From NCBI GenBank assembly GCA_005882335.1, contig VBAP01000008.1, forward strand, positions 346 through 64,345: a DNA stretch of 64,000 bases, written 5' to 3'. The notes under the pieces were generated by a model. It was not told the DNA's origin and did not search any database. It saw nothing but the letters and a program-made list of their open reading frames with translations. This DNA is from Candidatus Segetimicrobium genomatis (lineage in GTDB: Bacteria > Sysuimicrobiota > Sysuimicrobiia > Sysuimicrobiales > Kaftiobacteriaceae). The translations under genes were made by a program, and so were the position numbers. Each line of letters starts with the position of its first letter. The stretch's first letter is position 1. This document shows, in pieces, positions 8,973 through 42,832 of this stretch.

Positions 8973-9479
8973 TCATTGCCTCACTTTCACGACGCCGGTG
9001 GCAATGGGTTCCTTGGGCGCGGCGCGGTGGAGGTCGTCCAGGTCGTAGAGCAGGTTGGCCCGGTTGTAGGTACTGGCCTCGTAGTGCGGGACGAAGACAA
9101 TGGCCTCCGTCGGGCAGACCTCCACGCACAGCCCGCAATAGCAGCACTTGTCCATCTCGATATCGAAGCGCGTCAGCAGGCGGTCCTTGGCCTTCCCGGT
9201 CGCCTCGATATGAATGCACCGATCGGGGCAGACCCGCTCACACTGGAAACAGATAATGCACTTGTCGTTGTCGGTCTCGGGGTCGATCGGCAGCGCCAGC
9301 AGGCCATGCCAGCGCGGTGACACGTTCAGCTTCTGCAGCGGGTACGAGACCGTGACCTTGGGCTCGAACATCGCCCGCAGGGTGGATTTGAGACCGACGA
9401 CCAGCCCCACCATTCCCGCCACGATCCGGACCATCCGCGATCGCCTGCCGTCGGAGTGGGGCATCATCTGGGCGCTCAT
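8973..9479 (-). CDS. nuoI: NADH-quinone oxidoreductase subunit I (2x[4Fe-4S] ferredoxin). The start was trimmed to MSAQMM.
   Basis: Two CxxCxxCxxxCP motifs (CIICFQCERVCPDRCI and CCYCGLCVEVCPTEAI). The untrimmed ORF 8973-9755 has an N-terminal extension that overlaps nuoD. Confidence 0.85.
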   Translation of the reverse strand: MSAQMMPHSDGRRSRMVRIVAGMVGLVVGLKSTLRAMFEPKVTVSYPLQKLNVSPRWHGLLALPIDPETDNDKCIICFQCERVCPDRCIHIEATGKAKDRLLTRFDIEMDKCCYCGLCVEVCPTEAIVFVPHYEASTYNRANLLYDLDDLHRAAPKEPIATGVVKVRQ

Positions 9480-26362: not shown

Positions 26363-28798
26363 CTACGGGAAGGTCTGTTTGATGATCGGCTTCCCGGGCA
26401 CGGGCACATTGAGCACCACAGATGCTCCCGGCCGCACCATGATCGCTATGGAGCCGTTCCCCTCCAGGTGCAGGCCCTCGGGGAGCGAGTTCAGGTTGAG
26501 CACCACGGTATAGTCACCAGGCGGCAGGTGGGAAAACCTGAACGTTCCATCGTCCGCGGACGTCGCGAACTGCTGGCGTGGCCCCCGCAACTCGAGGACC
26601 ACACCGCCGATGCCCTCTTCGTCGGGGTCGCGGTTACCATTCCTGTCGGCATCGACGTACACGGTCCCGCTCAGCGTCGCCTCGGGGACGAGGGCAAACT
26701 CTAGCCTGGTGCTGGCACCATCTGTGACCTGCACCGTGTACCGGAGCTGCGTCGCGACCAGCCCAACCGGGACGGTCTCGTCATCAAGAGAGATGCGGTA
26801 CTCGCCTACCTTGATCGCCTCGAGTGAAAGCCGCCCGTCGCGATCCGAGATCGCAGCCCTGCGACCTTCGATCCGCATGCTCACACCCGGCACACCAGGC
26901 TCGCCGGGATCCTGTCTTCCGTTCTCGTTGGAATCCTGGAACACGACGCCCTCGAGCCGTCCGTTCGGGACAATCCCATACGTGGTGATCGGATAGCCGT
27001 ATTGCAAGGTGATAGACGATGTGGTATTTCCCGTGGAGTCGAACTGCACCCTGGGGCCCACAGAGAGGCGCGCGCCCGTGGGCAACGTGTGAGACAGGCT
27101 CAGTTCGACAATCATCTGGTTGAGAGCGCTCGGCAGGGTGAACACATTGTTCTGCACCTGAGCGATCAGATCTAAGTACGGCGAAAGTCGGAAGCCCCAA
27201 CCCGTGCCAATCCCCCAGCCGTCTGTGGCACCCACCTGCCGCGTGATCTCTAGCCACGCCGGGAGCCCTGTGTCCAGCGCGTATAAGGTCTGCAGTCTGA
27301 AGATCGCGGTGCTGCTGGTGGTGCCGGCGAGCAGATCGATGGTGTCCGTCTGGTTAGCGGCTACGGTGAACGTCCACCGGTCCTGTGTGTAGAATGCTGC
27401 GGCCTGCGTCCCGGTGTTTCGCGTGCTTACACCTGTCGCGGTATCATCGGTGACGCGTGTCCCCAGCGCGATCCCCCACCCGGGGGCCGGACGGAAGCCC
27501 ACAAGCAGGTCGTATGACACTCGGTTCGGCAGACCGCTGGCACTGCCGTCGAGCAACGTCGCGCCGCTGGAGATCGACCAGCGGGGGTCCGGCGCATACG
27601 CGAGTTGCAGGAGGGGGCCACTCCGGCCGGTGAACAGCGCTGCGTTCCCTACAGCCGGGAAATCCGGACTCACCACCAGGTAGCTGAGGGACGTCGTGAG
27701 CGTTGGCGATGAGGCGACCGTGCCGATCCGCCACGCCGGCCCCGCCGCGAGCCCAGAGACCCCCTCGGCGACTTCGCCGAAGACGGCCAGGCCGGGGGCC
27801 ACCTCTCGGTCGGCGCGCACCCGGGTGAGCAGCGCCCCGGCTGTGGGATCGTACATGAGACCCGCCTCACCCTGCCACGGCCCGGACTGGGGGAAGGTCA
27901 TCGTCATCCCGTAGACCTGACCGCTGGAGTCGGCGAGCGACCCGCCGAAGAACTTCGCCCCAGAGTCCCCCGCTTTCCCCTCATACGCGACGCCCAAGAT
28001 CCCCTGCTGGTAGAGGGTGAATGGAGATTCGTCGAGTGCAAGTCCACCTACCGTCAATATATAGGCCGGGTTGCGGAGGACCACCACGCCTGACGCATCC
28101 AGCGGACCGTTGCCCGCGCCCACTCTCAGCAGCCCTTCGATGTTCTCGGGGGCCCCAAACGATTTGTATTGTACGGTGGCCGTGGCTGTGAGAGTGCCGG
28201 CGCCGGACGTGAGGCCCACTGCGACGTAGCCAGACGACGTGAGCGGCGGGGTGAGATCCTGCTGAAACTCAGAGACAAATGGACGAGTGGCGGCGGGGGC
28301 GGGCGCGGACGCCGCGGGTGGGCGTGGAGGCTTCGCGGCCACTGCCGTCTGAAAGGGCGCGCGGGTGACGATGGTCATCACCCCTTCCTGCGCGTCCCAT
28401 GTGGTCAGCGCGTCGAACAGCGCTTCCACCGCGCTTTTGGGGATCATCGTCACCCCGTTGACCAGACGCACCGGCGCTTCCAGGAGGGTGGTGACGACGT
28501 CGCCCGACCACACCTCCAGGCGATCGACACGCAGCGTCAACACCGCGCCGTCGAGCCTGAGGACGTCGATAGCCGGAGCAGCGAATTTCGTGGTGGCCTG
28601 GAAGCGCCTCGCCAGCGGAGCAAGGGGAAGGTAGACCGTACCATCCTGGAAGAACGCGGGCGGGCTGATGCTGAGCGCGACGTCGTCAACGACGACGCGG
28701 ATCACCGCCGCGGCGCCATAGATCGGCACCGCCAATCCCAGCGTGCAGACCGCCACGCCGGCAATGCCTGTCCACCACCTGCGGAAGCGGCGCGTCAC
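26363..28798 (-). CDS. Large secreted/outer-membrane protein: putative usher of the adjacent chaperone-usher pilus cluster. It has a Cu-amine-oxidase-N-like N-domain, a Gly/Tyr-rich beta-barrel-like core and two C-terminal Cna-B/SdrD-type beta-sandwich repeats.
   Basis: 811 aa with a signal peptide. The C-terminal repeats are GVVFQDSNENGRQDPGEPGVPGV and GTVYVDADRNGNRDPDEEGIGGV. Its size and position after the chaperone fit an usher. The accessory domains are atypical. Confidence 0.45.
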   Translation of the reverse strand: MTRRFRRWWTGIAGVAVCTLGLAVPIYGAAAVIRVVVDDVALSISPPAFFQDGTVYLPLAPLARRFQATTKFAAPAIDVLRLDGAVLTLRVDRLEVWSGDVVTTLLEAPVRLVNGVTMIPKSAVEALFDALTTWDAQEGVMTIVTRAPFQTAVAAKPPRPPAASAPAPAATRPFVSEFQQDLTPPLTSSGYVAVGLTSGAGTLTATATVQYKSFGAPENIEGLLRVGAGNGPLDASGVVVLRNPAYILTVGGLALDESPFTLYQQGILGVAYEGKAGDSGAKFFGGSLADSSGQVYGMTMTFPQSGPWQGEAGLMYDPTAGALLTRVRADREVAPGLAVFGEVAEGVSGLAAGPAWRIGTVASSPTLTTSLSYLVVSPDFPAVGNAALFTGRSGPLLQLAYAPDPRWSISSGATLLDGSASGLPNRVSYDLLVGFRPAPGWGIALGTRVTDDTATGVSTRNTGTQAAAFYTQDRWTFTVAANQTDTIDLLAGTTSSTAIFRLQTLYALDTGLPAWLEITRQVGATDGWGIGTGWGFRLSPYLDLIAQVQNNVFTLPSALNQMIVELSLSHTLPTGARLSVGPRVQFDSTGNTTSSITLQYGYPITTYGIVPNGRLEGVVFQDSNENGRQDPGEPGVPGVSMRIEGRRAAISDRDGRLSLEAIKVGEYRISLDDETVPVGLVATQLRYTVQVTDGASTRLEFALVPEATLSGTVYVDADRNGNRDPDEEGIGGVVLELRGPRQQFATSADDGTFRFSHLPPGDYTVVLNLNSLPEGLHLEGNGSIAIMVRPGASVVLNVPVPGKPIIKQTFP

Positions 28799-28822: not shown

Positions 28823-29689
28823 TCACGGCCCGCGGTATGCAAAGCTCAGCTCGCCTGATACCAACACGTCGGCACCGTAGTCGATCACAGCGCGGGCCGT
28901 GTAGGTCCCGGGTCCCAGACTCTTGTCCCAAGAGATCTTGAACTCTCGGGTGCTTGCCGGCAAGACGACGGCCTCCGGGAGGGACACCTTCCCGAGGCGC
29001 TGGCCGGACGCGTCGAGGATCTCGACCTCGCCGCGCGTGTGCAGATGCACGTTGCCTTTGTTGCGAAACGCCACCCTGATGTCCGCGCCGGCACCGCGCG
29101 GCCGGGGTGCAGCGAGCATGTTCACGATGGCGCCCTGCACGACTTCGGTGCCGCGGATGGCGACCAGCAGGCGAGCCGCCAACTTCGGCGCCACCACTAT
29201 GAAGGTCCCCTTCCCTGCGGCCGGAGTCTGGAGGACCGGTGTCGAGGTGACCACGATCATTCCGTACAGCCCACCCCGGGCGTCACGGGGGACCGTGACC
29301 GCGATCCGCACCGGCATCTGCCGCTCCGCCTCGAGATCGAACTCTGCCGGCTGCACGCGTGTGAACCGGGCCACCGACCAGGACAACTTGCCCGGCTCCA
29401 GCACATCGGCCACTCCGTCAGGACGGACGTAGAGATCCTGCACCGCGACTCGCATGCGCGCGGTATTCGGCGCCTTGTTGTACACGACAAGGACGGCGCT
29501 GGCGGTTCCCCCCGGAGGGGGCACCAGTTCGATTTCGCCCGGGCTGATGCCGTACCGAATCGGCTGCGCATGCGCGGAGATGGCGCTGAAACCGAGCAGC
29601 GCGACGGCGGGGACCAGCGCCAGCCACACCGCAGTCCTGACCCGGCGTGTCAAGTGCGGTACAGGACAACCCTGGGGCACTCGCCCCAT
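28823..29689 (-). CDS. Periplasmic pilus chaperone-like protein (PapD/CsuC-like Ig fold). The start was trimmed to MGRVPQG.
   Basis: Signal peptide then a beta-rich 260-aa body. ATGA overlap with the upstream pilin stop. Its position between the pilin and usher genes supports the call. Confidence 0.5.
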   Translation of the reverse strand: MGRVPQGCPVPHLTRRVRTAVWLALVPAVALLGFSAISAHAQPIRYGISPGEIELVPPPGGTASAVLVVYNKAPNTARMRVAVQDLYVRPDGVADVLEPGKLSWSVARFTRVQPAEFDLEAERQMPVRIAVTVPRDARGGLYGMIVVTSTPVLQTPAAGKGTFIVVAPKLAARLLVAIRGTEVVQGAIVNMLAAPRPRGAGADIRVAFRNKGNVHLHTRGEVEILDASGQRLGKVSLPEAVVLPASTREFKISWDKSLGPGTYTARAVIDYGADVLVSGELSFAYRGP

Positions 29690-30156
29690 CAGAGCTCCAC
29701 CACCTGGTAATCCACCCCGATCGTAAAATTCCCCGCGCCGTCGCCCCAGTTGACGCACTGCCTGTAGTAGACGGTGTGATTGATGTTTGAGCCTATTGGC
29801 TGGTTGCTGAAGACATTCACGTATAATGCCGTGATATCAGTAAACGGCCCGCCGGCAGCGGTTGCGTACTGGAAAGAGTTGAGCATCTCCGTCCCGGAAC
29901 CGTTCTTGGCTTTGCCGTTTGGGTTGTTGATCGTATTTGAGCGGATGCGGAGATCGTAATTTTTTTTGGTGCTGGTGACGGTGATGGTTGTCGAGGTGGT
30001 GCTGCAGAATGTCGGCAGGGTCGACCCGATCGCCGCGGTGGCCGGCACGGTGATGGTGAGGGCCGCCTCCGCATGCGGTGGCACCAACAGCGTAGCCAGC
30101 AGCATCACACTGCAGACCGCCACGGTTCTCAAGATCCTGGTCCGCATCATTCTCAT
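29689..30156 (-). CDS. Spore-coat-U (SCPU)/Csu-type archaic pilin subunit
   Basis: 155 aa with a signal peptide. It has the conserved cysteine pair (FCSTTST...YYRQCVNWGDG) and the C-terminal TVYYRQC motif of SCPU pilins. Confidence 0.55.
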   Translation of the reverse strand: MRMMRTRILRTVAVCSVMLLATLLVPPHAEAALTITVPATAAIGSTLPTFCSTTSTTITVTSTKKNYDLRIRSNTINNPNGKAKNGSGTEMLNSFQYATAAGGPFTDITALYVNVFSNQPIGSNINHTVYYRQCVNWGDGAGNFTIGVDYQVVEL

Positions 30157-30247
30157 CAGTCACGAGGGAGGCCGCTGCCGCCGGATGATGACCGGCTCTG
30201 CATCAGCCTCCCTGCACGCCTGTTTGCTGTGTCGATGCTGGGCCGTG

Positions 30248-30700
30248 CTAGTTCGAGCCCTGATACTCGGCAACGATCGTGTAATCGGCCGGGTCGTCAT
30301 CGTACGTCACGCACTGCTTGTAGTACACTGTCTTGGAGACACCCGCATTGCCCGTCTTTGCCTGGCTGGTGAAGGCGTCCGCGTAGGCCGTGGTGATGTT
30401 GCCGTATGTCGATCCGTCAGTCCCCCACTGGAACGCATTCGTCAGGAAGACGCTGCTGGCGTTCTTCGCCTTACCGCCTGTGTACGCGGAGTTGGCTCGG
30501 ATCTGCATGCTCCACGTTTTGTTGCTCTTCACCGTGATGCTGGTGCTCGCCGTCCCGCAGCCGCCGGCGACGCCGGCGTTGGCGGTGATCGACGCCGTGC
30601 CCGGGACTGTGATTTCGATGGCGTCCGCCGCGGTGATGGTCACCGTCTGGCTGCCCGTGGCCGTCCCGCCGTAGCCTGCCCCGACTGCCAGGGCGACCAC
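30248..30700 (-). CDS. SCPU/Csu-type pilin paralogue. The N-terminus lacks a proper signal peptide in this frame.
   Basis: Paralogue of 29689-30156 (ITVKSNKTW...TVYYKQCVTYDDD). An ATG (MKTG...) lies 1 nt out of frame across a run of C residues at 30710-30713 on the plus strand. This points to a homopolymer frameshift or a GTG start. Confidence 0.45.
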   Translation of the reverse strand: MVALAVGAGYGGTATGSQTVTITAADAIEITVPGTASITANAGVAGGCGTASTSITVKSNKTWSMQIRANSAYTGGKAKNASSVFLTNAFQWGTDGSTYGNITTAYADAFTSQAKTGNAGVSKTVYYKQCVTYDDDPADYTIVAEYQGSN

Positions 30701-31059
30701 GATCAGGGTCCCCAGTCTTCATCTGTACTGCCTCCGGTTCCAACGCTTCTCCCGGGCGCTGCCACGTAACACAGGCCGCGGGGCCAATCTTCTACAATAA
30801 TGAGCAAGTTGCGTGCCAGCCCGCGAGGGGACCGTCCGAAGGTCCTAGATCCTGCGCGCAACGTGCCGGCGACTACCAGAGGCTTGCCCTGTCGCGGAGA
30901 TGGCTAGACGGCCGCGCGGAGGGGGAATTTGATATTTACTCAACGGAAATTTGGCGGGGACCAAGCGGAAGGAGATCTTCATCCCTACGGTTGGTAACCA
31001 AGATACTCTACGACGATCGTGCAGGGGGAAGACGAAGCTGCCTACCGCAGTAGGCTCAG

Positions 31060-31569
31060 CTACACCAGTCCTGGATTGATGCGGATGCCCGACAGATCCT
31101 CGTCAGCCATGGAGTCGTCGCCGGCGGCGGCCTGCGTCTCGCTGCCGTGAGGTCCGGAGGGCAGCTCCCCCCGGAGCGCTGCGCTCAGGTCGTCCAGGTA
31201 CCGCGCCACTGCCAGCCGCAGCATGCCTAGCTGCGAAGCCGCTCCGATGATCACGGCGACCACCGGACCCAGCGGCGCCATCACTACCGCACGACCGCCG
31301 TACACCACCATCACAACCTCGGGCGCGCCGAACGCGGCGCTCTCCCCCAGGCGTTCAGACACCATCACGCTGCTGGCCGCGTAGGCCGCCAGGGCATCGA
31401 GGTCGGTTTGGAGGTCGCCGATGGAGTGCAACACCACCCCATCACCGGAGAGCATCAGAACAGCCTGAGCCGCCGACTGCCGTCGGAGCTCCGTGAGCAC
31501 GGTCTGCACCTGCTCGTTGATCTGCTGTTCGTTGGTCACAGGAGTGTTGTACCCGCGCCGCGAGCCCAC
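31060..31569 (-). CDS. Roadblock/LC7 (MglB-like) domain protein
   Basis: 169 aa with the LMLSGDGVVLHSIG...AAYAASS pattern of Robl/LC7 domains. Confidence 0.6.
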   Translation of the reverse strand: MGSRRGYNTPVTNEQQINEQVQTVLTELRRQSAAQAVLMLSGDGVVLHSIGDLQTDLDALAAYAASSVMVSERLGESAAFGAPEVVMVVYGGRAVVMAPLGPVVAVIIGAASQLGMLRLAVARYLDDLSAALRGELPSGPHGSETQAAAGDDSMADEDLSGIRINPGLV

Positions 31570-31580
31570 TAGCCCGACCC

Positions 31581-32390
31581 TCAGGCCACCACCGTGGCGT
31601 CGGAATCCCCGCCGCCGGCGAGACGCGTTTCACCGTCCAGCCAGGACCGCAAGGCAAGGTGGGTGCGCAATGACTGCAGCGCTTCGCCGCGCATCTGGCT
31701 GATTCGAGACTCGGTCACGCGGAGCACGCGGCCGATCTCCCACAAGGTGAGTCCCTCGCAGTAGTACAGCCCGATCACGACCTTGTGGCGGACCGGCAGC
31801 GCTTCGATAGCGTGCCACAGTTCCGCATTGCGCGCCTGTTGCTCCATGCTCCCGACGACGTCGCCGCCGGCATCCCGCGCCAGTGCCTCGGGGAACCGGT
31901 CCGCGTCGCCGAACTCGTCCAGCGATAGAGGCAGCGCCGCGTGCTGATCGGTGCGGGCCCGGCCCAACTGGCGGGTCGCCAGCCCTGTCGCCTCCGCCAG
32001 CTCTTCATCGGTGGGCAGGCGGCCGAGCTGTCGCGTCAACGCGTGCACCTGCGCCTGCACCCGGTGCACGTTGCGCCGCGCGATCCGGGGCAGCAGGTCC
32101 AGCGTGCGCAGGTAGTCGTACATGGCGCCGCGGATCCGCAGACGGGCGAACACCTCAAACGGGATCCCGCGGTCGGGATCGAACCGGTCGATGGCTTCCA
32201 GGAGGCCGATCATTCCGTAGCCTTCCAGATCCTCGCTCTTTACCGTAGGAGGAACACGACTGGTCATCTGCCTGGTCTGTGCGCGTACGAGCGGGAGATA
32301 GGCCAATGCCAGGCGCTCGCGTACCGCAACGGCGTGGCCCTCCTTGAACACCCGCCACAAACTGGCTACCGACTGGGAATCCGCGGCCAT
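31581..32390 (-). CDS. fliA: RNA polymerase sigma factor, FliA/WhiG (sigma28) family
   Basis: 269 aa. Region 2 (DLEGYGMIGLLEAIDRFDPDRGIPFEVFARLRIRGAMYDYLR) and region 4 (LYYCEGLTLWEIGRVLRVTESRISQMRGEAL) are FliA-like. Confidence 0.8.
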   Translation of the reverse strand: MAADSQSVASLWRVFKEGHAVAVRERLALAYLPLVRAQTRQMTSRVPPTVKSEDLEGYGMIGLLEAIDRFDPDRGIPFEVFARLRIRGAMYDYLRTLDLLPRIARRNVHRVQAQVHALTRQLGRLPTDEELAEATGLATRQLGRARTDQHAALPLSLDEFGDADRFPEALARDAGGDVVGSMEQQARNAELWHAIEALPVRHKVVIGLYYCEGLTLWEIGRVLRVTESRISQMRGEALQSLRTHLALRSWLDGETRLAGGGDSDATVVA

Positions 32391-33470: not shown

Positions 33471-33510
33471 GAAAAAAGAGGAGCAAGGAGCGTGCCACGC
33501 CCGAATGGCC

Positions 33511-33657
33511 GTTGAAACGTTGGAAGGTTGAAGCGTTGGAATGAACCAGCAAGACTGATGAAACCCACGGAACGCGCTGAAGGACTGACAGACTGAAGGT
33601 CTATCGAGTGCCGAAGCGGTATCGCTTCAACGTTTCAACGCTTCAACGTTTCAACGC
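33511..33657. repeat. Intergenic hairpin element. (GTTGAAAC/GTTGGAAG)n on the left and (CTTCAACG/TTTCAACG)n on the right. It uses the same word family as 25811-25907.
   Basis: Arms at 33511-33543 and 33625-33657. Confidence 0.7.
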
Positions 33658-33659
33658 CG

Positions 33660-35027
33660 TTACGTCGTCTCCGCCAGCGGGCCTCGGGCCGTCGACGGCG
33701 GGATGTTCATCTCTTCCCGGTACTTCGAGACGGTGCGGCGCGCGATTTTCGTCCCTTCGGCCGTCAACAGGTGGGCAATCTGGTCATCGGTTAGCGGATC
33801 TGTCTCCGCGGCAATGAGCGCTCGAATACGCTCCTTCACCGGCAGCGATTGATCGAAGAAGATTTCGAAGCTCACCACGCGGCCGCTGGGCAACTGCGCG
33901 AACTTGGCGTCCAGCGCGCGACTGACTGTGGACTCGCTGATCCCGAGTTCCGCGGCGATCATCGCCTTGGTCAGCGGCTTCATGTGCGCCTCGCCGCGCT
34001 CGACGAACTCCCACTGTGTGCGCACAATCGTCTGCACGATGCTGGCGAACGTCCAGTTACGGCGGGCCAGGACCTCGATGAATAGCTTGGCACGGCCGAC
34101 GTAATCACGGACGTGATCGCGCGATTTGTCGGAATACCCGGATGCCGCGCGGCGCATCTGCCGGCGCAGGTCGTCATAAAAGGCGTTGACGCGGAGCGCG
34201 AACGCATCCCGCCGGCACAGCTCCACGGTGAAGCCCTCTTCGGTCTGGCGGATGATGATGTCAGGCCGCGCCACTTCGGCCGGGTGCACGCGACCGCCGT
34301 CCTGCTCGCTGCGGTATCGCTCGCCGGGATAGGGGTAGCAGTTGGCCTTGACGAACTCGTGCGCGTCTTTCACCTCGGCGATGGTGACCCCGAGGTCCTT
34401 CGCCACCTTCTCAAACCGCCGCGCGGCCAGGTCCGCCAGATGAGTCTCCACCAGACGCTGGGCCAGCCGGTTGGCGGGCGCCGGCTCCATCACCCGGAGT
34501 TGCAGCAGCAGACACTCTTCGACGTTGCGTGCGCCGACGCCGACGGGCTCGAAGCGCTGGATGCGCCCCAAGACCGCCTCGACCTCTTCGACCTCCGCGT
34601 TCATCTCCTGGGCCACCTGCACGGTGGTCGCTTCCACGTACCCGTTCTCGTTGATGTACCCGATGAGCCGCTCGCCGATGGCGTGGTCGCGAGCCGAGAG
34701 CCCCTGCGCCTGCAGTGTCATCATCAGGTGCTCCTGCAGCGACACCGGCGCCGCCATGCGGGAGAACGGATCGAACTCTTCGTCATCCGACGTCCAGGTC
34801 GCCAGTGACTGCCCGGATTCTTCACCCGACCAGTCGGGCTCCGGGGAGGACGGTATTTCATCCAGTTCCAACGCCGGGTTCTCAGCCAGTTCCTGCTCAA
34901 TGCGCGCCAGCAGCTGGTTGAGCGGCAGCACCAGGAGCGCATTGACCATCATCAGCTTGGGCACCATGCGCTGGTGCAGCTGCGGGTTGACGCCGACTGA
35001 GGTATGAATGCGCGGATCCATAGACAC
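33660..35027 (-). CDS. rpoN: RNA polymerase sigma54 factor
   Basis: 455 aa. It has the C-terminal RpoN box (ARRTVSKYREEMNIP), an HTH and an N-terminal Gln/Leu-rich region. Confidence 0.9.
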   Translation of the reverse strand: MSMDPRIHTSVGVNPQLHQRMVPKLMMVNALLVLPLNQLLARIEQELAENPALELDEIPSSPEPDWSGEESGQSLATWTSDDEEFDPFSRMAAPVSLQEHLMMTLQAQGLSARDHAIGERLIGYINENGYVEATTVQVAQEMNAEVEEVEAVLGRIQRFEPVGVGARNVEECLLLQLRVMEPAPANRLAQRLVETHLADLAARRFEKVAKDLGVTIAEVKDAHEFVKANCYPYPGERYRSEQDGGRVHPAEVARPDIIIRQTEEGFTVELCRRDAFALRVNAFYDDLRRQMRRAASGYSDKSRDHVRDYVGRAKLFIEVLARRNWTFASIVQTIVRTQWEFVERGEAHMKPLTKAMIAAELGISESTVSRALDAKFAQLPSGRVVSFEIFFDQSLPVKERIRALIAAETDPLTDDQIAHLLTAEGTKIARRTVSKYREEMNIPPSTARGPLAETT

Positions 35028-36536: not shown

Positions 36537-36625
36537 ACGGCGCGTATAACCTCGCACCGGGTGCGGGTTCTCTCGCATCGCCATCCTAGAGCAAGTTTCG
36601 TGCCAGGCCTTTCCAAACAAAAAGG

Positions 36626-36737
36626 CGTCTTCAATGTCTCCAAGGTCTTCCGGGTCTCCCAGGTCAAGCCGAGTCTCATCGGGCGTAAGCAGGTAGACCC
36701 GGAAGACTTAGTAGACATGGTAGACCTTGTAGACGCA
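36626..36737. repeat. Intergenic hairpin element. (GTCTTCA/GTCTCCA/GTCTTCC)n on the left and (GTAGACC/GAAGACT/GTAGACA)n on the right.
   Basis: Arms at 36626-36662 and 36693-36737. Confidence 0.7.
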
Positions 36738-36746
36738 GTTTCGTTC

Positions 36747-38111
36747 TCATCCGGTCTCCGCCGAAATGTTGTGCTCCTGGATTCTTGTTTGGAGGGCGGC
36801 ACGGTCGATTCCCAGGACCCGTGCGGCCTCGTCCAGGTTCCACGCGGTCATCTTCAGGACCGCGTGGATATGCCGGCGTTCGACTTCACCAAGCGAGAAC
36901 GCCTTCGGGAACTTCGCCCCCGGGGACGGCTGTTCGTCCAGCCAGATCTCCTCGGTGTCGATGAGTTCCCCGGTGGCCAGAATGACCACGCGCTGGACGG
37001 TGTACTCCAGCTCGCGGACGTTGCCCGGCCAGTGGTGGCTACGCAGTCTCTTCATCGCCGCCGGAGTGAAGCCTTTGATCCGCTTGCCGAACGCCACCGC
37101 GTACTTGTTCAGGAAGTGGTAGGCCAGCACGTGGATATCCTCTTTGCGATCGCGCAGCGCCGGCAACTCCAGCGGCATGACGGCCAGCCGGTAGTAGAGG
37201 TCCTCCCGGAACCGGCTGTCGCCGATCGCCTTCTTGAGATCTTTGTTGGTGGCTGCCACGACGCGGGCGTTGACATCGATGGGCTTGTTGCCGCCAACGC
37301 GCTCGATGACCCGCTCCTGGAGCACGCGCAGCAACTTCACCTGCATCGACAAGCTCATGTCGGCGATCTCATCCAGGAAGACCGTGCCGTCTTGGGCGCG
37401 CTCAAACCGGCCGACATGGCTGGTGATCGCGCTGGTGAATGCGCCCTTCTCGTGGCCGAAGAGTTCCGTCTCCAGCAGCGTCTCGGGGATCGCTCCGCAG
37501 TTCACCACCACAAACGGGCCGTTGGCGCGCGGGCTCTGGAAGTGGATGGAGCGGGCCAGCAACTCTTTACCGGTGCCCGTCTCCCCGTAGATCAGCACGG
37601 TGGCATCGGTCGGCGCGACGGCGGACGCCAGCCGCAACACGTCGCGCATCTTTGGAGATTCCCCGACGATCCCCTCGAACTTGAATGTCCGCATCAGTTC
37701 CTGTTGCAGCGCCCGGTTCTCTTGCATCAGGCGGCTGCGTTCCAGCGCCTGGTTCACTACAATCATCAACTCTTCAGGGCGGAAGGGCTTGCCGACATAA
37801 TGGTAAGCGCCAAGCTTGATGGCCTGGATGGCGGTGTCGATCGTCGAAAACGCGGTGATGATGATGACCAGCGCGTCGGGGTTGTGCTCCTTGATCGACC
37901 GCAGCACGCTCATGCCATCGAGCTTGGGCAGCTTGAGGTCGAGGAGCACGAGATCGTAGCGGCCGGCCTTGTACTTGGCCAGCCCTTCTTCGCCGTCGAC
38001 CGCGGTCTCGACCGCGTAGCCGTCTTCGCGAAGAATCCTGATCAGCAAATTCCGGAGGTTCTCCTCGTCGTCGACGACGAGGATGGACGTGCCATCGGTG
38101 ACCATCAGCAC
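36747..38111 (-). CDS. Sigma54-dependent transcriptional activator (NtrC/FleQ-like: REC, AAA+ and Fis HTH)
   Basis: 454 aa with [15 protein letters not shown] (Walker A), the GAFTSA-type sigma54 contact motif (GAFTSAIT) and a C-terminal HTH. Confidence 0.9.
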
Positions 38112-38190
38112 TCTCTTCTTGGGCCGAAATGGGGGTCCTGCGGAGTTATACCTCTTCCGCGGGGAGGCTAGACGCTATGCAAAGCGTAGC

Positions 38191-38265
38191 CACTATCCAG
38201 TAACCAGTCGCCAGTCAATTCCTGAACTGTTTCTGGCGACTGGTGACTGGCTACTGGTGACTGCT
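38191..38265. repeat. Intergenic hairpin element. (CAGTAAC/CAGTCGC)n on the left and (GGCGACTGG/TGACTGG)n on the right.
   Basis: Arms at 38191-38216 and 38234-38265. Confidence 0.65.
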
Positions 38266-38373
38266 GTGAAAAAGCCCCGCCGTCCCTCTCCGTGCGGGCG
38301 GCGTCGCAGCGTCCCCCCTGAGGTTCGCCTGCACCCGGCTCCCGCGTTCGGAGTACAGAGACGGCGGGGAATC

Positions 38374-38739
38374 CTATCGTTTCCCGATCGTGATAACCCT
38401 TCCGAGCTTCGCTGCCACCGCTGCTAGCGCGGCCGGCGGAAGCTCCCGCACTGTGGTCCTGGTCTGGACGTCGACGACCCGCACGACCAGGCGGCGGGTT
38501 CGCTCATCAACGGCCAACTCCGCGATGAGGCGCGCGGACGGCGTGCGCAGGGTATCCTGCGCAAGTTCCGCGCCGGGGCCGGACGGCCCCATCCCAGACT
38601 GGTTCGCAGAACCTGGCAGAGCCAGCGCGTCGGCGATCACCGGCTCCAGCTGGAGCCGTGACGTCAGCGCCCGGCGCGCGCGCTCGAAGAGGTTGACGAA
38701 GTCACTGCCGCCCGAGGTGGAAGGCGTGAGCGTATCCAT
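38374..38739 (-). CDS. flaG: FlaG-family protein. The start was trimmed to MDTLTPS.
   Basis: The C-terminal LVVRVVDVQTRTTVRELPPAALAAVAAKL matches the FlaG signature (VvkVvD.eTgEvIRqiPpee). Confidence 0.55.
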   Translation of the reverse strand: MDTLTPSTSGGSDFVNLFERARRALTSRLQLEPVIADALALPGSANQSGMGPSGPGAELAQDTLRTPSARLIAELAVDERTRRLVVRVVDVQTRTTVRELPPAALAAVAAKLGRVITIGKR

Positions 38740-39125
38740 CAATTCAGCCGGGCCTGCGCCCGTGAGGTGCTGGCCGACGCGATCGCCGCCAGGGCAGGGG
38801 CCAGGACCCGCTCCGACCACAACGTGCGGTTGGCGCGCTCCACCGCGCCGAGGCCGCGGACCAGCGTGGCGATCTGCCGCGTGAACGTGGCCACATCCGG
38901 AACGTTTGTGGAAGTCTTGTGGCGCAGCTGACGGCGTCTGGCTTCCAGATCCCGCAGGGTGACGATATAGGCGGCTTCCAGCACGGCCAGGTCTGCGGCT
39001 TCGTCAAAGCGGCCCTGCTTCAGCAGCAGGTGCCGGGAGCGCGCCAGCCGCAGCAGTTCGCGGTGCACGGCCAACTCACGTTCTAGAATCTGGCGAAGCT
39101 GTCCGGCCGTGGAGCCCATGTGCAT
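38739..39125 (-). CDS. FlgN/FliT-like flagellar export-chaperone-like helical protein. The start was trimmed to MHMGSTAG.
   Basis: Helical, with leucine heptads (QLRQILERELAVHRELLRLARSRHLLLKQGRFDEAADL). Its position next to flaG supports the call. The family assignment is tentative. Confidence 0.35.
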   Translation of the reverse strand: MHMGSTAGQLRQILERELAVHRELLRLARSRHLLLKQGRFDEAADLAVLEAAYIVTLRDLEARRRQLRHKTSTNVPDVATFTRQIATLVRGLGAVERANRTLWSERVLAPALAAIASASTSRAQARLN

Positions 39126-39281
39126 GACACCTCGGACGTCACCAGGAAGAAGCCAGTCTGTAATGAGGAGCAATTCCTGTGCCACGTGGGCAGAATGCCG
39201 GGGCCAAGGGACCGGGGGACCAAGGGACCACGCAGCCATGTCTGCCTGGTCCCTTGGCTGCCTGGTATCTGCTCCCGTTGT

Positions 39282-39307
39282 TCAAGTTTTGGGCATGATG
39301 CCGATAG
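39282..39307 (+). promoter_or_regulatory. Candidate sigma28 (FliA)-type promoter for peptide gene 1: TCAAGTTT-N10-GCCGATAG, against consensus TAAAGTTT-N11-GCCGATAA.
   Basis: Read directly from the sequence. Seven of eight positions match in each box. fliA is encoded 7 kb upstream. Confidence 0.45.
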
Positions 39308-39328
39308 GAAGGGCAGAGGGAACTTACA

Positions 39329-39357
39329 TTGACAGCCTGTATGACCTGTGTTACTGT
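39329..39357 (+). promoter_or_regulatory. Alternative sigma70-like promoter, TTGACA-N17-TACTGT, upstream of peptide gene 1
   Basis: Perfect -35 with 17-nt spacing. The -10 matches three of six positions. Confidence 0.35.
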
Positions 39358-39471
39358 CAGCGAGCAATCTGTTCGGAGACCGGCTCACATCTCGATTCGG
39401 AAGGCCGCAGGCAACAGGTTCCTTGCCGGCGAGATGACGGGTCTATCCCAGCAGGAAGAGGGAGTCAATCA

Positions 39472-39618
39472 ATGCGCAAGGTGATCGCTGCATTCTTGTT
39501 CGGATTCCTGATGTTTGCTGCGGCGTCCGTATCGTGGGGCCAGACGGCCTCGACGGAGGCCACGTGGGAGTCGGCCACCTGGGAGACTCTTGACGCGGTC
39601 CCTGCAGTCTGGGAGTAG
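39472..39618 (+). CDS. Secreted 48-aa Trp-rich acidic peptide precursor (signal peptide plus a mature peptide of about 26 aa, WGQTASTEATWESATWETLDAVPAVWE)
   Basis: A strong SD (AGGGAG) lies 8 nt upstream. A near-identical paralogue sits 390 nt downstream. Its own terminator hairpin follows. The 169-aa ORF 39109-39618 in the track is an upstream GC artefact of this short gene. Confidence 0.7.
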   Translation: MRKVIAAFLFGFLMFAAASVSWGQTASTEATWESATWETLDAVPAVWE

Positions 39619-39652
39619 TTCCGGCCGTATCAGGACATCAGGACTGGTAGTG

Positions 39653-39690
39653 ACGAGGGGGTCCATCTGGACCCCCTCGTTGTGTTCCTC
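39653..39690 (+). terminator. Rho-independent-type terminator after peptide gene 1. It is a 12-13 bp perfect palindrome (CGAGGGGGTCCA / TGGACCCCCTCG) followed by a T-rich tail (TTGTGTT).
   Basis: Read directly from the sequence. Confidence 0.5.
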
Positions 39691-39801
39691 CCCGGCGCCC
39701 TGCCGGCGCATTCTCCCCATCTAGCCCACCCCTTCCGGGGGCATGACTTCGATAGGGTCCTGCTGGATTTTCCAAGAAAACTTGGTTAGAAAGTGTGGGC
39801 G

Positions 39802-39817
39802 TGGTACGAAAGTTGCT
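39802..39817 (+). promoter_or_regulatory. Sigma54 promoter (-24/-12), TGGTAC-N5-TTGCT, upstream of peptide gene 2
   Basis: Matches TGGCAC-N5-TTGCW with one mismatch. The GG-N10-GC spacing is exact. It lies about 45 nt upstream of the ATG at 39863. Confidence 0.6.
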
Positions 39818-39862
39818 CTATTTAAGGGTAGCAAAGACGTCCATCACACGGAGGGAACGACG

Positions 39863-40009
39863 ATGAGAAAGGTCCTGATTGCCGTCATGGTGATTCTGGC
39901 GGTGTGCGTGGGGACATCGGTATCGTGGGGCCAGACGGCCTCGACGGAAGCGACGTGGGAGTCGGCCACCTGGGAGACTCTTGACGCGGTCCCTTCAGTC
40001 TGGGAGTAG
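39863..40009 (+). CDS. Secreted 48-aa Trp-rich acidic peptide precursor, a paralogue of 39472-39618
   Basis: MRKVLIAVMVILAVCVGTSVSWGQTASTEATWESATWETLDAVPSVWE. The mature region is 25/26 identical to peptide 1 and the signal peptide is divergent. SD GGAGGG. Confidence 0.7.
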   Translation: MRKVLIAVMVILAVCVGTSVSWGQTASTEATWESATWETLDAVPSVWE

Positions 40010-40065
40010 CATGGCGCTCCGCCCGGTGGAGGATTCCACCTGGCGGTAGTCTAACTGCAGAGGTT

Positions 40066-40104
40066 GCCCGGGAGGCCGCCAGGGCAGTTGAGGCGGCCCC
40101 GGGC
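40066..40104 (+). terminator. GC-rich hairpin (GCCCGGGAGGCCGCC / GGCGGCCCCGGGC) between peptide gene 2 and the histidine kinase gene. It is a candidate terminator or attenuator.
   Basis: Read directly from the sequence. It is followed by CATTTGGCATCTGTT. Confidence 0.4.
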
Positions 40105-40130
40105 CATTTGGCATCTGTTGGGGCGGGGAT

Positions 40131-42425
40131 ATGAAGAACCTCTCGACGCCAGCCCGCGTCTACATCCTGGGGGTCATCATCGCCGGCGGCATCCTGGCGG
40201 CGATCCTGCCGCAGCTGCCGGGAGCCGCGCCGCGGCTGGATCTGCCGTTTGCCGTCTTCGTCGCCGCGGCACTCCTGACGCAGCTGGTCGGCGTCCGCGT
40301 GATCATGCCCGGCCGCGAGGGCATCGCCTGGTCGTTGATCAACGCAGTGATCGTGGCCACCGTCCTGCTCTTCCCTGCCGGCAACAGCATTCTTCTCGTC
40401 CTCATCACCTTCACCGCCTACGGATTCAAACGCCGTGAGCTGCCCTGGTATCAGGGCGCCTTCAACGTCGCGCAGCACGTGCTCTCGGTCAGCATCGCCG
40501 AGACGGTGTGGGCGATCGCGCGGCCGAGTAGCATTTCTGGGGCGATGGCGGTGCAGTGGTACGGCGCGGCGTTCTCCGCCGGTATGGTGTTCTACGTCGC
40601 CAACGGCGCCCTGGTCACCATGGCCATCACGCTGGTCGCCGGCAAACCGTTCGGGCAGGTCGGCGTTATCTCGCGGTCCAGCTTCTACCGCGAGATGGTC
40701 CTGATCTGGCTCGGCGCCGCCGTGGCCGACTTCTGGATCGTCAACCCGTGGCGCACGGTGCTGCTGACACTCCCGCTGGTTGGATTGTCGCAGATGCTGC
40801 GCCTGCAGATCGAGGACGCGGAGCGCATCCGCCGCAGCCAGCAAGAGGCCGAAGGCCGCGCCCAGCAACTGGCCAGCCTGAACGAACTGGCCCGGGCCCT
40901 GACCAGCAGCCTGGAGCTACAGCAAATCTACGAAGCGCTGTACGCGCAGGTGCGCACGATCGTCCCCGCTGACGCCTTTGGCGCCGGCGTGTACGAATCA
41001 CACTCCAATCTCATCCGGTTTGGCCTCTGGCGAACTGAGGATGAGACGTTCCCATCGTTTTCCAGGAATGCGTCCGAGCCGATCTTCCGGCGCGTCCTGC
41101 AGGCCCGGACGCCGCTGGCCCTGGAAGCGGGACCCGATCACGCGGAGATTGCGCAGCTCAGCCAGTATGGCCGGCTCCATCGCGATGCGATGGCCGTCGC
41201 GATCCCCATGACCGTCGGCGATCGAGCCGTCGGCATGATCATCGTCGGCACGCGCCGTGTCCTCACCTCGCAGGAGATGGACCTGCTCTCCACCATGGCC
41301 AGCCAGACGGCCGTGGCTGTGGAGAAGGCCCAACTCTTCGACAGGGAACGCCGGAAGAGCGCGCAGCTGGGTGCCATCACGCAGGTCTCCAAGAAGATCG
41401 TCACCATCCACAGCGTGGATGTCCTCCTGCAGCAGACATCGCGCCTCATCGAGGAGGCCTTCGACTTCGAGCGTGTGCAGCTGCTGCTGGCGGACGAAGC
41501 TGAAACGTCGCAGGCCGATCCCGCGGCGACCGGCATCCCCATCCTGTATCGCGGACAGTCGATCGGCGACCTGCGGGTGTGGCTGCGCCCGGGCACCGGT
41601 TTTTCTCCGGACGACCTGTCGATGCTGCAGACGCTGGCGGATGAGATCGCCGTGGCGATCGAGAATGCGCGCCTGTACGAGAACCTGCAGCGTCAGATGG
41701 CCATGCTGGAGCAAACACAGTTCCAGCTCATGCAGTCGGCCAAGCTGGCCACGATCGGCGAACTGGCGGCGTTCGTGGCGCACGAGATCAACAATCCCTT
41801 GACCAGCGTGCTGGGCTACGCCTCGCTGATCTTGAGCGAGACGCCGCCGGATGACGCCAAGCGCGGCGATCTGGAGGTCATTGAGAAGGAAGCGCTGCGG
41901 GCGCGCGCCATCGTGCGGGACCTGCTGGGCTATGCCCGGCAGACCGACTCCGCGATGGAACAGACCAGCATCAACGAGGCGATCGAGAGCGTCCTCCCGC
42001 TGATCCGCCGCCGCGCCGAGTCGCAGCGCGTCAACATCACGGCGAACCTCGATCCGTCGGTCCCCAAAATCATGGGTGACATCAACCAGCTCAAACAAGT
42101 CTTCATCAACATTCTGAACAATGCGATCGACGCCATGCCCGCCGGCGGCGCCGTGGATATCCGCACGCGTGAAGTCACCGGGAACGGAACCGGACCGCAG
42201 GTGGAAATCTCGTTCCAGGACAGCGGGGTAGGCATATCCGAGGACAAGCTGGAGCGCATCTTTGATCCCTTCTTCACGACCAAGGAAGACGGCAAAGGCA
42301 CCGGGCTCGGGCTGCCCATCAGCAAGCGCATCGTGGAACGCCACGGCGGGTCTATCGCGGTGAAGAGCATGCTTGGGGCGGGGACCCGGTTCACGGTGTG
42401 CATTCCAGTCGCGGTCACCTACTGA
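40131..42425 (+). CDS. Sensor histidine kinase with an N-terminal polytopic membrane domain, two GAF domains, HisKA and HATPase
   Basis: 764 aa with about seven TM helices in the first 230 aa. H-box ELAAFVAHEINNPLTSVLGYASLI, N/G boxes, and GLGLPISKRIVERHGGSIAV. Confidence 0.85.
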   Translation: MKNLSTPARVYILGVIIAGGILAAILPQLPGAAPRLDLPFAVFVAAALLTQLVGVRVIMPGREGIAWSLINAVIVATVLLFPAGNSILLVLITFTAYGFKRRELPWYQGAFNVAQHVLSVSIAETVWAIARPSSISGAMAVQWYGAAFSAGMVFYVANGALVTMAITLVAGKPFGQVGVISRSSFYREMVLIWLGAAVADFWIVNPWRTVLLTLPLVGLSQMLRLQIEDAERIRRSQQEAEGRAQQLASLNELARALTSSLELQQIYEALYAQVRTIVPADAFGAGVYESHSNLIRFGLWRTEDETFPSFSRNASEPIFRRVLQARTPLALEAGPDHAEIAQLSQYGRLHRDAMAVAIPMTVGDRAVGMIIVGTRRVLTSQEMDLLSTMASQTAVAVEKAQLFDRERRKSAQLGAITQVSKKIVTIHSVDVLLQQTSRLIEEAFDFERVQLLLADEAETSQADPAATGIPILYRGQSIGDLRVWLRPGTGFSPDDLSMLQTLADEIAVAIENARLYENLQRQMAMLEQTQFQLMQSAKLATIGELAAFVAHEINNPLTSVLGYASLILSETPPDDAKRGDLEVIEKEALRARAIVRDLLGYARQTDSAMEQTSINEAIESVLPLIRRRAESQRVNITANLDPSVPKIMGDINQLKQVFINILNNAIDAMPAGGAVDIRTREVTGNGTGPQVEISFQDSGVGISEDKLERIFDPFFTTKEDGKGTGLGLPISKRIVERHGGSIAVKSMLGAGTRFTVCIPVAVTY

Positions 42426-42832
42426 TGACCTCCATACAAACTGCCCAGCAGCCGCGCCCCGTGGCGGCCCGCGTCCTTGTGGTCGACGACGAAGAGTCGA
42501 TTCGCGACCTGTGCGCACGGGTGCTGAGCCGCGCCGGCTACACCGTGATTACCGCCCCCAGCGGCGAAGATGCCGTCGCCCTGCTGACCCGGGAGGCATT
42601 CGCCCTGGTTATCTCCGATATCCGCATGCCCGGCATCTCCGGCTTGGAGGTGCTGGAGCGTGCCAAGGCCACCTACCCGGAGATCCGGGTCGTGCTGATC
42701 ACCGGATTCGGCACCCCCCAGATGCTGACCCGAGCCCAGCAATCCGGCGCCGACCGCATCCTCACCAAACCCTTCAACCCGATGGAGCTCCTGGCGGCCG
42801 TCAGGGAAATCCTGCCACAGGACGGACGCTAG
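42425..42832 (+). CDS. Single-domain response regulator (CheY-like REC)
   Basis: VLVVDDEESIRDL...VISDIRMPGISGLEVL...TKPF. ATGA overlap with the kinase stop. Confidence 0.85.
   Translation: MTSIQTAQQPRPVAARVLVVDDEESIRDLCARVLSRAGYTVITAPSGEDAVALLTREAFALVISDIRMPGISGLEVLERAKATYPEIRVVLITGFGTPQMLTRAQQSGADRILTKPFNPMELLAAVREILPQDGR

Follow-up and report, generated by a model that had tools for sequence, protein, structure and literature searches.

Why would a bacterium place two tandem genes for almost the same secreted peptide behind different promoters? The question is raised by a stretch of 64,000 nucleotides (nt) from Candidatus Segetimicrobium genomatis (contig VBAP01000008.1 of assembly GCA_005882335.1; hereafter the window, meaning the whole stretch of DNA analyzed), in which the initial annotation had proposed a sigma-28-like promoter for peptide copy 1 and a near-consensus sigma-54 promoter for copy 2, so that the paralogues would sit at different tiers of a flagellar-style hierarchy. 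Comparison with related loci supports this interpretation in silico, all of its parts surviving the comparative test, and we consider it probable that the two genes belong to a compact regulatory island of ~14 kb, conserved in an uncultivated soil lineage, in which a sigma-54 to FliA circuit would govern the twin peptide genes. The elements on which the argument turns are the following (positions are those of the window):

39472-39618, plus strand: peptide copy 1, 48 amino acids (predicted signal peptide, SVSWG, then QTASTEATWESATWETLDAVPAVWE)
39863-40009, plus strand: peptide copy 2, 48 amino acids (signal peptide unlike that of copy 1, mature part nearly identical)
39282-39307, plus strand: sigma-28 (FliA/WhiG)-like promoter of copy 1 (TCAAGTTT at 39282-39289, N10, GCCGATAG at 39300-39307)
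39329-39357, plus strand: sigma-70-type promoter of copy 1 (TTGACA at 39329-39334, N17, TACTGT at 39352-39357, with TG before the -10 as in an extended -10)
39802-39817, plus strand: putative sigma-54 -24/-12 promoter of copy 2 (TGGTAC at 39802-39807, N5, TTGCT at 39813-39817; TGGTACGAAAGTTGCT, with GG-N10-GC)

The window was compared with related loci of ~20 kb (L001-L027) from about eight related lineages, drawn from metagenome-assembled genomes (labelled 'Bacillati bacterium ANGP1', 'Armatimonadetes bacterium 13_1_40CM_64_14' or unnamed bacteria), soil metagenomes and assemblies of public sequencing runs. Across these loci the encoded sigma-54 activator is 76-98% identical to that of the window, and the intergenic DNA of the island is poorly alignable outside the motifs described here (mean column identity 42-49%). 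The region upstream of copy 1 was aligned for 13 loci, and the intergenic alignment ahead of copies 2 and 3 comprises 16 regions. The 64-kb window was scanned for sigma-28 promoters with the pattern TAAAGTTT-N10-GCCGATAA (<=3 mismatches) and for sigma-54 promoters with TGGCAC-N5-TTGCW (0 or <=1 mismatch), and its ~60 open reading frames (ORFs) were scanned against Pfam.

A FliA-type sigma factor, RpoN and a sigma-54 activator, all placed within 8 kb by the initial annotation, are borne out by matches above curated cut-offs and by domain hits:

31581-32390, minus strand: fliA (TIGR02479, 212.8 bits against a cut-off of 189.6; the third-best NCBIfam match is the WhiG model)
33660-35027, minus strand: rpoN (TIGR02395, 305 bits against a cut-off of 277)
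36747-38111, minus strand: NtrC-family sigma-54 activator (receiver, AAA+ (Sigma54_activat) and HTH_8 domains)

Exact matches to the sigma-54 consensus, which had been missed earlier, occur four times in 64 kb against 0.05 expected, each on the minus strand and a short way ahead of a gene start:

39169-39184, minus strand: consensus sigma-54 promoter TGGCACAGGAATTGCT, divergent from copy 1 and ahead of the FlgN-like, FlaG-like and activator genes; kept in 13/13 loci
36590-36605, minus strand: consensus sigma-54 promoter ahead of a response regulator (RR)-GAF-HD-GYP gene and rpoN; kept in L002, L003, L004, L019 and L023
33482-33497, minus strand: consensus sigma-54 promoter ahead of the GAF-GGDEF, fliA and Roadblock/LC7 genes; kept in five divergent loci
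30803-30818, minus strand: consensus sigma-54 promoter ahead of genes for small secreted proteins; kept in L002, L003, L019 and L023

When five divergent loci are compared, these four sites are the only invariant blocks of their intergenic regions, and with the copy 2 site they bring the number of sigma-54 sites within 9 kb to five. The whole island is syntenic across related loci, and the genes that accompany fliA and rpoN in their operons were identified by domain scans:

35043 to about 36578, minus strand: RR-GAF-HD-GYP gene
32400 to about 33470, minus strand: GAF-GGDEF gene
31060-31569, minus strand: Roadblock/LC7 gene

Gaps of 9-11 nt separate the GAF-GGDEF, fliA and Roadblock/LC7 genes. 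The RR-GAF-HD-GYP gene ends 15 nt ahead of rpoN, an arrangement kept in all long loci. The conserved consensus promoter in front of the fliA operon is in keeping with the proposal that the two paralogues occupy different tiers, and since sigma-54 promoters precede the fliA, rpoN and activator operons alike, a cascade from sigma-54 to sigma-28 is plausible, one in which sigma-54 would help to drive its own gene.

There is a strong case, judged from motif and conservation, that copy 2 is served by a sigma-54 promoter. The near-consensus site with exact GG-N10-GC spacing that had been reported before this gene is present and deviates from YTGGCAC-N5-TTGCW by one mismatch, C to T; distant orthologues carry the full TGGCAC at this position. 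With <=1 mismatch allowed, the window holds 6 matches to the sigma-54 pattern against 1.99 expected. Every multi-copy locus (~eight lineages) has a GG-N10-GC element at 59-64 nt from the start codon (ATG) of copy 2 or 3, and in the 16 intergenic regions ahead of these copies GG and TTGCTC never vary and form the sole invariant block. Mean column identity of the element is 85%, compared with 49% for the whole intergenic alignment, and 9 of its 17 columns do not vary. The element is still found in L024 and L027, the most distant of the loci, once before copy 2 and again before copy 3. Transcription from the site in the window would start near 39829, giving a leader of ~35 nt. Two further elements precede it:

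39653-39680, plus strand: terminator-like hairpin after copy 1 (13-bp perfect arms, 2-nt loop, then TTGTGTT)
39739-39747, plus strand: GGGCATGAC block, ~60 nt upstream of the copy 2 -24 element

The hairpin, for which a terminator scanner gave no call because its T-tract is short, is kept with compensatory arm changes in L004-L006, L019 and L023, and a conserved hairpin between the copies suggests that each copy is its own transcription unit. The GGGCATGAC block is kept in 12 of the 16 aligned intergenic regions, lies also inside the spacer of the sigma-28-like site (39291-39298) and is not enriched window-wide; it could be a site for the activator or for another regulator. Between this block and the -24 element, at 39771-39786, is a palindrome, CCAAGaaaaCTTGG, with an A-tract, which might be a putative DNA-bending site. 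The relatives have an A-rich stretch at the same place, and the palindrome itself is not kept.

For copy 1, the motifs make a moderate case for a sigma-28-type promoter. The close match to FliA-dependent promoters that had been noticed ahead of this gene is the one match in 64 kb, where 0.02 are expected; no second sigma-28-like site occurs anywhere in the window, and GCCGATAR is found once, at this site. The -10 element GCCGATAG agrees with GCCGATAA at 7/8 positions and the -35 element TCAAGTTT at 6/8. The corresponding sites of relatives have spacers of N10 or N11 and -35 matches of 2-8 of 8, the best being that of L010, which carries TAAAGTTT-N10-GCCGATAG and thus a full 8/8 -35. Column identity of CCGATAG is 96% over 13 loci, and the whole motif has <=4/16 mismatches at the homologous position in 11 of these. 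In 11/13 loci it faces copy 1 at a rather constant 21-35 nt from the sigma-70 site, and its distance to the divergent sigma-54 promoter is variable (39-129 nt). The predicted start near 39315 would give a leader of ~157 nt.

The sigma-28-like site is flanked on its other side by two genes with a flagellar flavor:

38739-39125, minus strand: FlgN-like protein (PF05130, 28.3 bits against a cut-off of 30.5; probable start ATG 39125)
38374-38739, minus strand: FlaG-like protein (PF03646, 27.1-27.6 bits, cut-off 23.8; overlapping at its start with the stop codon of the FlgN-like gene)

These genes, directly upstream of copy 1, appear to encode remote members of the FlgN and FlaG families, with scores near or under the cut-offs. 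FlgN scores are 21-30 bits, below 30.5, in 6/6 orthologues including that of the window, and the five tested relatives match FlgN alone; FlaG scores range over 16-27.6 bits around the cut-off of 23.8 in 5/5 orthologues including that of the window, and four of four tested relatives match FlaG. The FlaG-like gene of L002 (~9237-9398) contains an in-frame stop, as if this accessory part were decaying. As the initial annotation stated, flagellar structural genes are lacking in the window: no flagellar structural, export or chemotaxis gene was found by Pfam among its ~60 ORFs, nor in the related loci, and its six-frame translation holds no flagellin signature. The label 'flagellar' is thus used here by analogy only.

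CCGATAG follows these genes across the family. It is kept in 7/7 examined lineages that carry FlgN/FlaG-like genes, and a full-length FliA/WhiG sigma factor was confirmed in three motif-bearing cases (the window, L004 with 212 bits and L023 with 209 bits). L024-L027, which represent two lineages, are without the FlgN/FlaG-like genes, the divergent sigma-54 promoter and CCGATA; the sigma orthologue of L024 (1390-2010) has 44% identity, 206 amino acids and no region 3, scoring 102 bits with the FliA/WhiG model against the cut-off of 189.6. The conservation of CCGATAG, and its absence from the lineages without FlgN/FlaG-like genes, in one of which the sigma orthologue is short of region 3, support the sigma-28 reading of copy 1.

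The sigma-70-like TTGACA-N17-TACTGT previously noted downstream of this site is likewise present, and it is conserved. In 13/13 loci TTGACA does not vary, nor do the first two bases and the last base of the -10 (TTGACA-N17-TAnnnT), and the most distant loci, L024 and L027, keep TTGACA-N17-TACACT, which makes this the best-conserved and sole universal promoter of copy 1. Taken alone the site in the window is not significant (P about 0.1 per 300-nt region), and a generic promoter scanner gave no call for it because its -10 matches the consensus at 3/6 positions. Transcription from it would start near 39365, at the first base of a conserved leader:

39365-39471, plus strand: conserved 5' leader of copy 1 (potential long hairpin GAGACC..CATCTCG..CGAGATG..GGGTCTATC, then a GGA-rich Shine-Dalgarno region)

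Mean column identity of the leader (79-83%) exceeds that of the signal-peptide coding region. It includes an invariant GTCTATC, and a core GAAGAC..GTCTATCCC is kept in L019, L023, L024 and L027. An Rfam scan of 38000-41000 returned sub-threshold microRNA-type hairpin noise only, so the leader does not appear to be a known riboswitch or leader. A claim of structured RNA was dropped, as the consensus hairpin has just 2 covarying pairs and a folding z-score of 0.19, no better than shuffles. The idea that CsrA acts on the GGA-rich segment remains speculation, the six-frame translation of the window holding no CsrA signature. The palindromes GGCATgATGCC and TGACAG..CTGTCA were rejected as operators: the dyads are not kept in relatives, whereas the promoter-consensus positions are.

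Several points weigh against the proposed circuit. At copy 1, the -35 of the sigma-28-like site is non-consensus (TCAA) and the spacer one base short; the -35 half is weakly conserved (75% identity, 1/8 columns invariant), and in L019 and L023 it is gone, the -10 alone surviving. The sigma-70-type promoter, the only one in every lineage, could by itself explain copy 1 expression. The loss of CCGATAG coincides with that of the FlgN/FlaG-like genes and the divergent sigma-54 promoter, and given this co-loss the block could belong to the FlgN/FlaG-like operon instead. At copy 2, the -24 element has T for C at its fourth base. No activator-binding site common to the five sigma-54 promoters was found (no common 8-mer; GGGCATGA not enriched), and the orthologous alignments of the sigma-54 regions show no conserved block beyond -24/-12. 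No FlgM-like anti-sigma factor was identified, and the pairing of the activator with the kinase encoded downstream of copy 2, as well as the role of the peptide, are guesses from adjacency.

The rival explanation that survives best, although unlikely, takes up the points on copy 1. It holds that copy 1 is transcribed from the sigma-70-type promoter only, the CCGATAG/GGGCAT block being a regulator or activator site of the divergent FlgN-like operon promoter, or an operator on copy 1. The invariance and universality of TTGACA-N17-TAnnnT and the absence of CCGATAG exactly where the FlgN/FlaG genes and the divergent sigma-54 promoter are missing would fit such an arrangement, as would the poor conservation of the sigma-28 -35 half. 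Furthermore, the distance of the block from the divergent sigma-54 promoter (39-129 nt upstream) is in the range typical of activator sites, the palindrome GGCATgATGCC lies inside the block in the window, and GGGCATGAC is found again ahead of the sigma-54 promoter of copy 2. However, it is the non-palindromic CCGATAG that is kept in relatives and not the palindrome, and no such block accompanies the other three sigma-54 promoters. CCGATA is a hallmark of the FliA/WhiG -10, and a FliA/WhiG sigma factor is encoded in the same island. A 16-base match that is unique in 64 kb, is directed at copy 1 and has a perfect -35 in L010 also argues for the sigma-28-type promoter.

The second alternative concerns copy 2 and the genes that follow it:

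40019-40104, plus strand: pair of GC-rich hairpins in the gap from copy 2 to the kinase gene (no T-tract; no terminator called)
40131-42425, plus strand: sensor histidine kinase (GAF, HisKA and HATPase domains; best match AtoS-like)
42398-42832, plus strand: single-domain response regulator, syntenic in all loci

Residues 1-230 of the kinase include ~6-7 hydrophobic segments joined by short loops. The kinase gene is the first one after the peptide array in all loci, and the activator gene is divergent from or adjacent to the array in all of them, so that the divergent activator gene, peptide array, kinase and response regulator form the invariant core of the family. From this core we infer that the peptides are tied to the adjacent two-component system, as signal or as output. 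Transcriptional read-through from copy 2 into the kinase gene is possible, and a quite improbable reading takes this further: the sigma-54 promoter would mainly serve the kinase and response regulator, copy 2 being a co-transcribed first cistron, and the arrangement would reflect two-component autoregulation, not peptide tiers. The lack of a T-tract terminator between copy 2 and the kinase gene, the short gap between them in every locus (73 nt in L024) and the position of the kinase, always after the last peptide copy, are consistent with it. Loci with three copies, on the other hand, have separate sigma-54 sites on copies 2 and 3, which argues that the promoter tracks the peptide copies and not the kinase, and two GC-rich hairpins follow copy 2. 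Such co-transcription would in any case be compatible with the proposed circuit, not exclusive of it.

It is hardly credible that the motifs arose by chance in GC-rich intergenic DNA and lack promoter function: lone consensus matches such as the sigma-70-like site are weak evidence, but 1 sigma-28 and 4 exact sigma-54 matches were observed where 0.02 and 0.05 are expected, the motifs are the only invariant blocks amid otherwise poorly alignable DNA, and the spread of activator identities (76-98%) speaks against recent transfer of one element among the loci.

The peptides that would be controlled in this manner are, by the searches made, a tiny and hitherto undescribed family. Pfam and NCBIfam gave no match, a full-text literature search on the peptide motifs returned unrelated papers only, and relatives amounted to 15 clusters among 5.8 billion proteins searched and to 21 by profile search of 1.84 billion representatives. 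Members have 45-54 amino acids, barring a few ORF calls with a start too far upstream or a run-off at a contig end, and each combines a basic N-terminus and a hydrophobic stretch with SVSWG, which never varies, and with 2-4 TWE-terminated repeats. The signal peptide was judged by residue pattern: MRK, 14-17 hydrophobic residues and S-V-S-W-G are found in 36/36 members, and the n, h and c regions of a Sec signal are present, with small residues at -3 and -1. The predicted mature peptides have 22-25 amino acids and a net charge of -3 to -6.5.

In all related loci seen, the peptide genes are tandem, in arrays of two or three copies, and the copies appear to be kept alike in one half only. In the window, codons 19-49 of the paralogues differ at just 4 nt, and codons 2-18 differ nearly throughout. 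The mature halves (39526-39618 and 39917-40009) share 96% DNA identity, rare codons included, and the signal-peptide halves have diverged. Between genomes the mature parts of paralogues change in concert. As near-identity at synonymous sites is restricted to the mature half, the pattern indicates that gene conversion recurs in the 3' half alone and keeps the mature peptides alike.

The motifs themselves, their rarity and conservation, the gene identities and the synteny are shown by the sequence, and from them we infer a model of how the island may operate, actual sigma dependence included. The sigma-54/activator tier would turn on five promoters, namely that of the later peptide copies and those of the FlgN-like/FlaG-like/activator operon, the HD-GYP/rpoN operon, the GGDEF/fliA/Roadblock operon and the small secreted-protein operon. 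The FliA-family sigma factor supplied by this tier would then act at the sigma-28-type promoter of copy 1, which would have an additional basal promoter of the sigma-70 type and the conserved ~105-nt leader. The mature product would be the same from either copy: an acidic peptide of ~25 amino acids, rich in Trp and Glu and exported by a Sec-type signal, with gene conversion holding the coding halves identical. One peptide would in this way answer to two or three regulatory inputs. The multi-pass histidine kinase encoded next to it may signal to the NtrC-type activator. The peptide may be what this kinase senses outside the cell, so that the sigma-54 copy would close an autoinduction loop, or else a product that the circuit secretes as its output. 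A more far-reaching version, possible but doubtful, is that a flagellar-type sigma-54 to sigma-28 cascade, with its FlgN/FlaG-like relics, has been co-opted for a self-contained circuit in which the TWE-repeat peptides take the place of flaA/flaB and serve as autoinducing signal of the neighboring kinase and sigma-54 activator, with basal sigma-70 expression, sigma-54 amplification and a delayed sigma-28 response; the cascade would govern the cyclic di-GMP (c-di-GMP) enzymes and possibly pilin-like secreted proteins as well.

A close parallel is found in flaA and flaB of Campylobacter jejuni and Helicobacter pylori, where paralogues of a near-identical secreted product are split between sigma-28 and sigma-54 and the sigma-54 copy has an NtrC-type two-component activator. 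In C. jejuni, flaA and flaB are tandem genes that exchange sequence. FlgS, of the two-component system involved, is cytoplasmic, unlike the predicted multi-pass membrane kinase of the island. FlaB is RpoN-dependent via FlgS/FlgR in both organisms and FlaA is FliA-dependent, FlgS being described as atypical (PMC3930126). In contrast to these flagellins, which are exported by the flagellar type III system, the island encodes peptides of 48 amino acids with a Sec signal; moreover, copy 1 adds a sigma-70-type promoter with a conserved leader, and flagellar structural genes are not found nearby.

The proposed cascade also resembles the RpoN-to-FliA hierarchies of Vibrio cholerae and Pseudomonas aeruginosa, in which an activator and sigma-54 switch on early and middle genes (fliA among them in Vibrio) and FliA then switches on late genes. 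In Vibrio, fliA itself is RpoN-dependent, and in both V. cholerae and P. aeruginosa c-di-GMP enzymes and signalling are interwoven with the flagellar hierarchy (PMC3930126). Unlike these systems, the cascade here would be contained in ~10 kb and rpoN itself lies behind a putative sigma-54 promoter; the visible outputs are peptides and small secreted proteins with no flagellar parts, and the FlgM-like anti-sigma factor is not seen.

Use of a FliA/WhiG-family sigma factor outside flagellar assembly has a counterpart in Streptomyces. There, WhiG is a FliA-family sigma factor that recognizes TAAA..GCCGATAA-type promoters in a non-flagellar developmental programme. Its targets are sporulation regulators, unlike the secreted peptides of the island, and WhiG is not known to be under sigma-54 control. 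The putative signalling role of the peptide, in turn, recalls the autoinducing peptides of Gram-positive Agr/Com systems and the Sec-exported Phr peptides: a gene for a small exported peptide lies directly upstream of that for a kinase with a membrane-embedded, short-loop sensor, and a promoter is present that could close a positive-feedback loop. The kinase here differs from AgrC and ComD of the HPK10 type in being HisKA/AtoS-like with a GAF domain, the output regulator is a sigma-54 activator, and processing or export genes are not present.

The sigma-54-headed operon at the far end of the island adds a second set of predicted secreted products:

30248-30700 and 29689-30156, minus strand: two small secreted paralogues (~150 amino acids, lineage-specific) behind the conserved sigma-54 promoter
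28823-29758, minus strand: secreted protein of 311 amino acids, in the same operon

The next gene encodes an 811-amino-acid protein with Cu_amine_oxidN1 and SdrD_B domains (26363-28798 region). The small secreted proteins (29689-30700) have no sequence match in the PDB. For the 155-amino-acid protein an identity as chaperone-usher pilin was considered and set aside as too weak to name, the AlphaFold model having a predicted local distance difference test score (pLDDT) of 73, a best Foldseek E-value of 6e-3 and template modelling (TM) scores of 0.35-0.46. The first paralogue seems to be missing a proper start: its ORF opens at GTG 30700, inside a signal-peptide-like stretch, and the well-placed ATG at 30722, which has a Shine-Dalgarno sequence, is in another reading frame, as would result from a frameshift or an error in the assembly. 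Elsewhere the window carries housekeeping genes (2-oxoacid dehydrogenase, Suf, complex I, Opp).

Four of the island's intergenic regions contain a short direct-repeat array (period 7, 8, 9 or 16 nt) and, after it, an inverted copy, the two giving a long imperfect hairpin:

33510-33541 / 33623-33656: repeat-array pair
36616-36665 / 36696-36745: repeat-array pair
38190-38214 / 38233-38257: repeat-array pair
39200-39229 / 39245-39266: repeat-array pair

Each region has its own repeat unit, e.g. CGTTGAAN or GTCTYCNNG, and three of the four pairs lie directly upstream of sigma-54 promoters. The arrays are not kept in relatives, and L003 has another unit (GGGATTA/GGGATC) at the same place.

As far as can be judged from DNA, a known regulatory design, the division of paralogues between sigma-28 and sigma-54, is found here in a new application, namely an undescribed peptide family in an uncultivated lineage. 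The split that is textbook knowledge for flagellin regulation is seen on secreted peptides of 45-54 amino acids, in a soil lineage known only from metagenomes, and if the reading is correct, the island would be a clean natural case of a flagellar regulatory cascade reused for another purpose. The conserved motifs provide ready promoter models for the annotation of the lineage. The ~14-kb module, which unites the two alternative sigma factors with an activator, with a kinase and response regulators, and with the c-di-GMP enzymes and peptide genes, could be synthesized, and would then allow the study of multi-sigma feed-forward control and possibly of a new peptide-signalling system.

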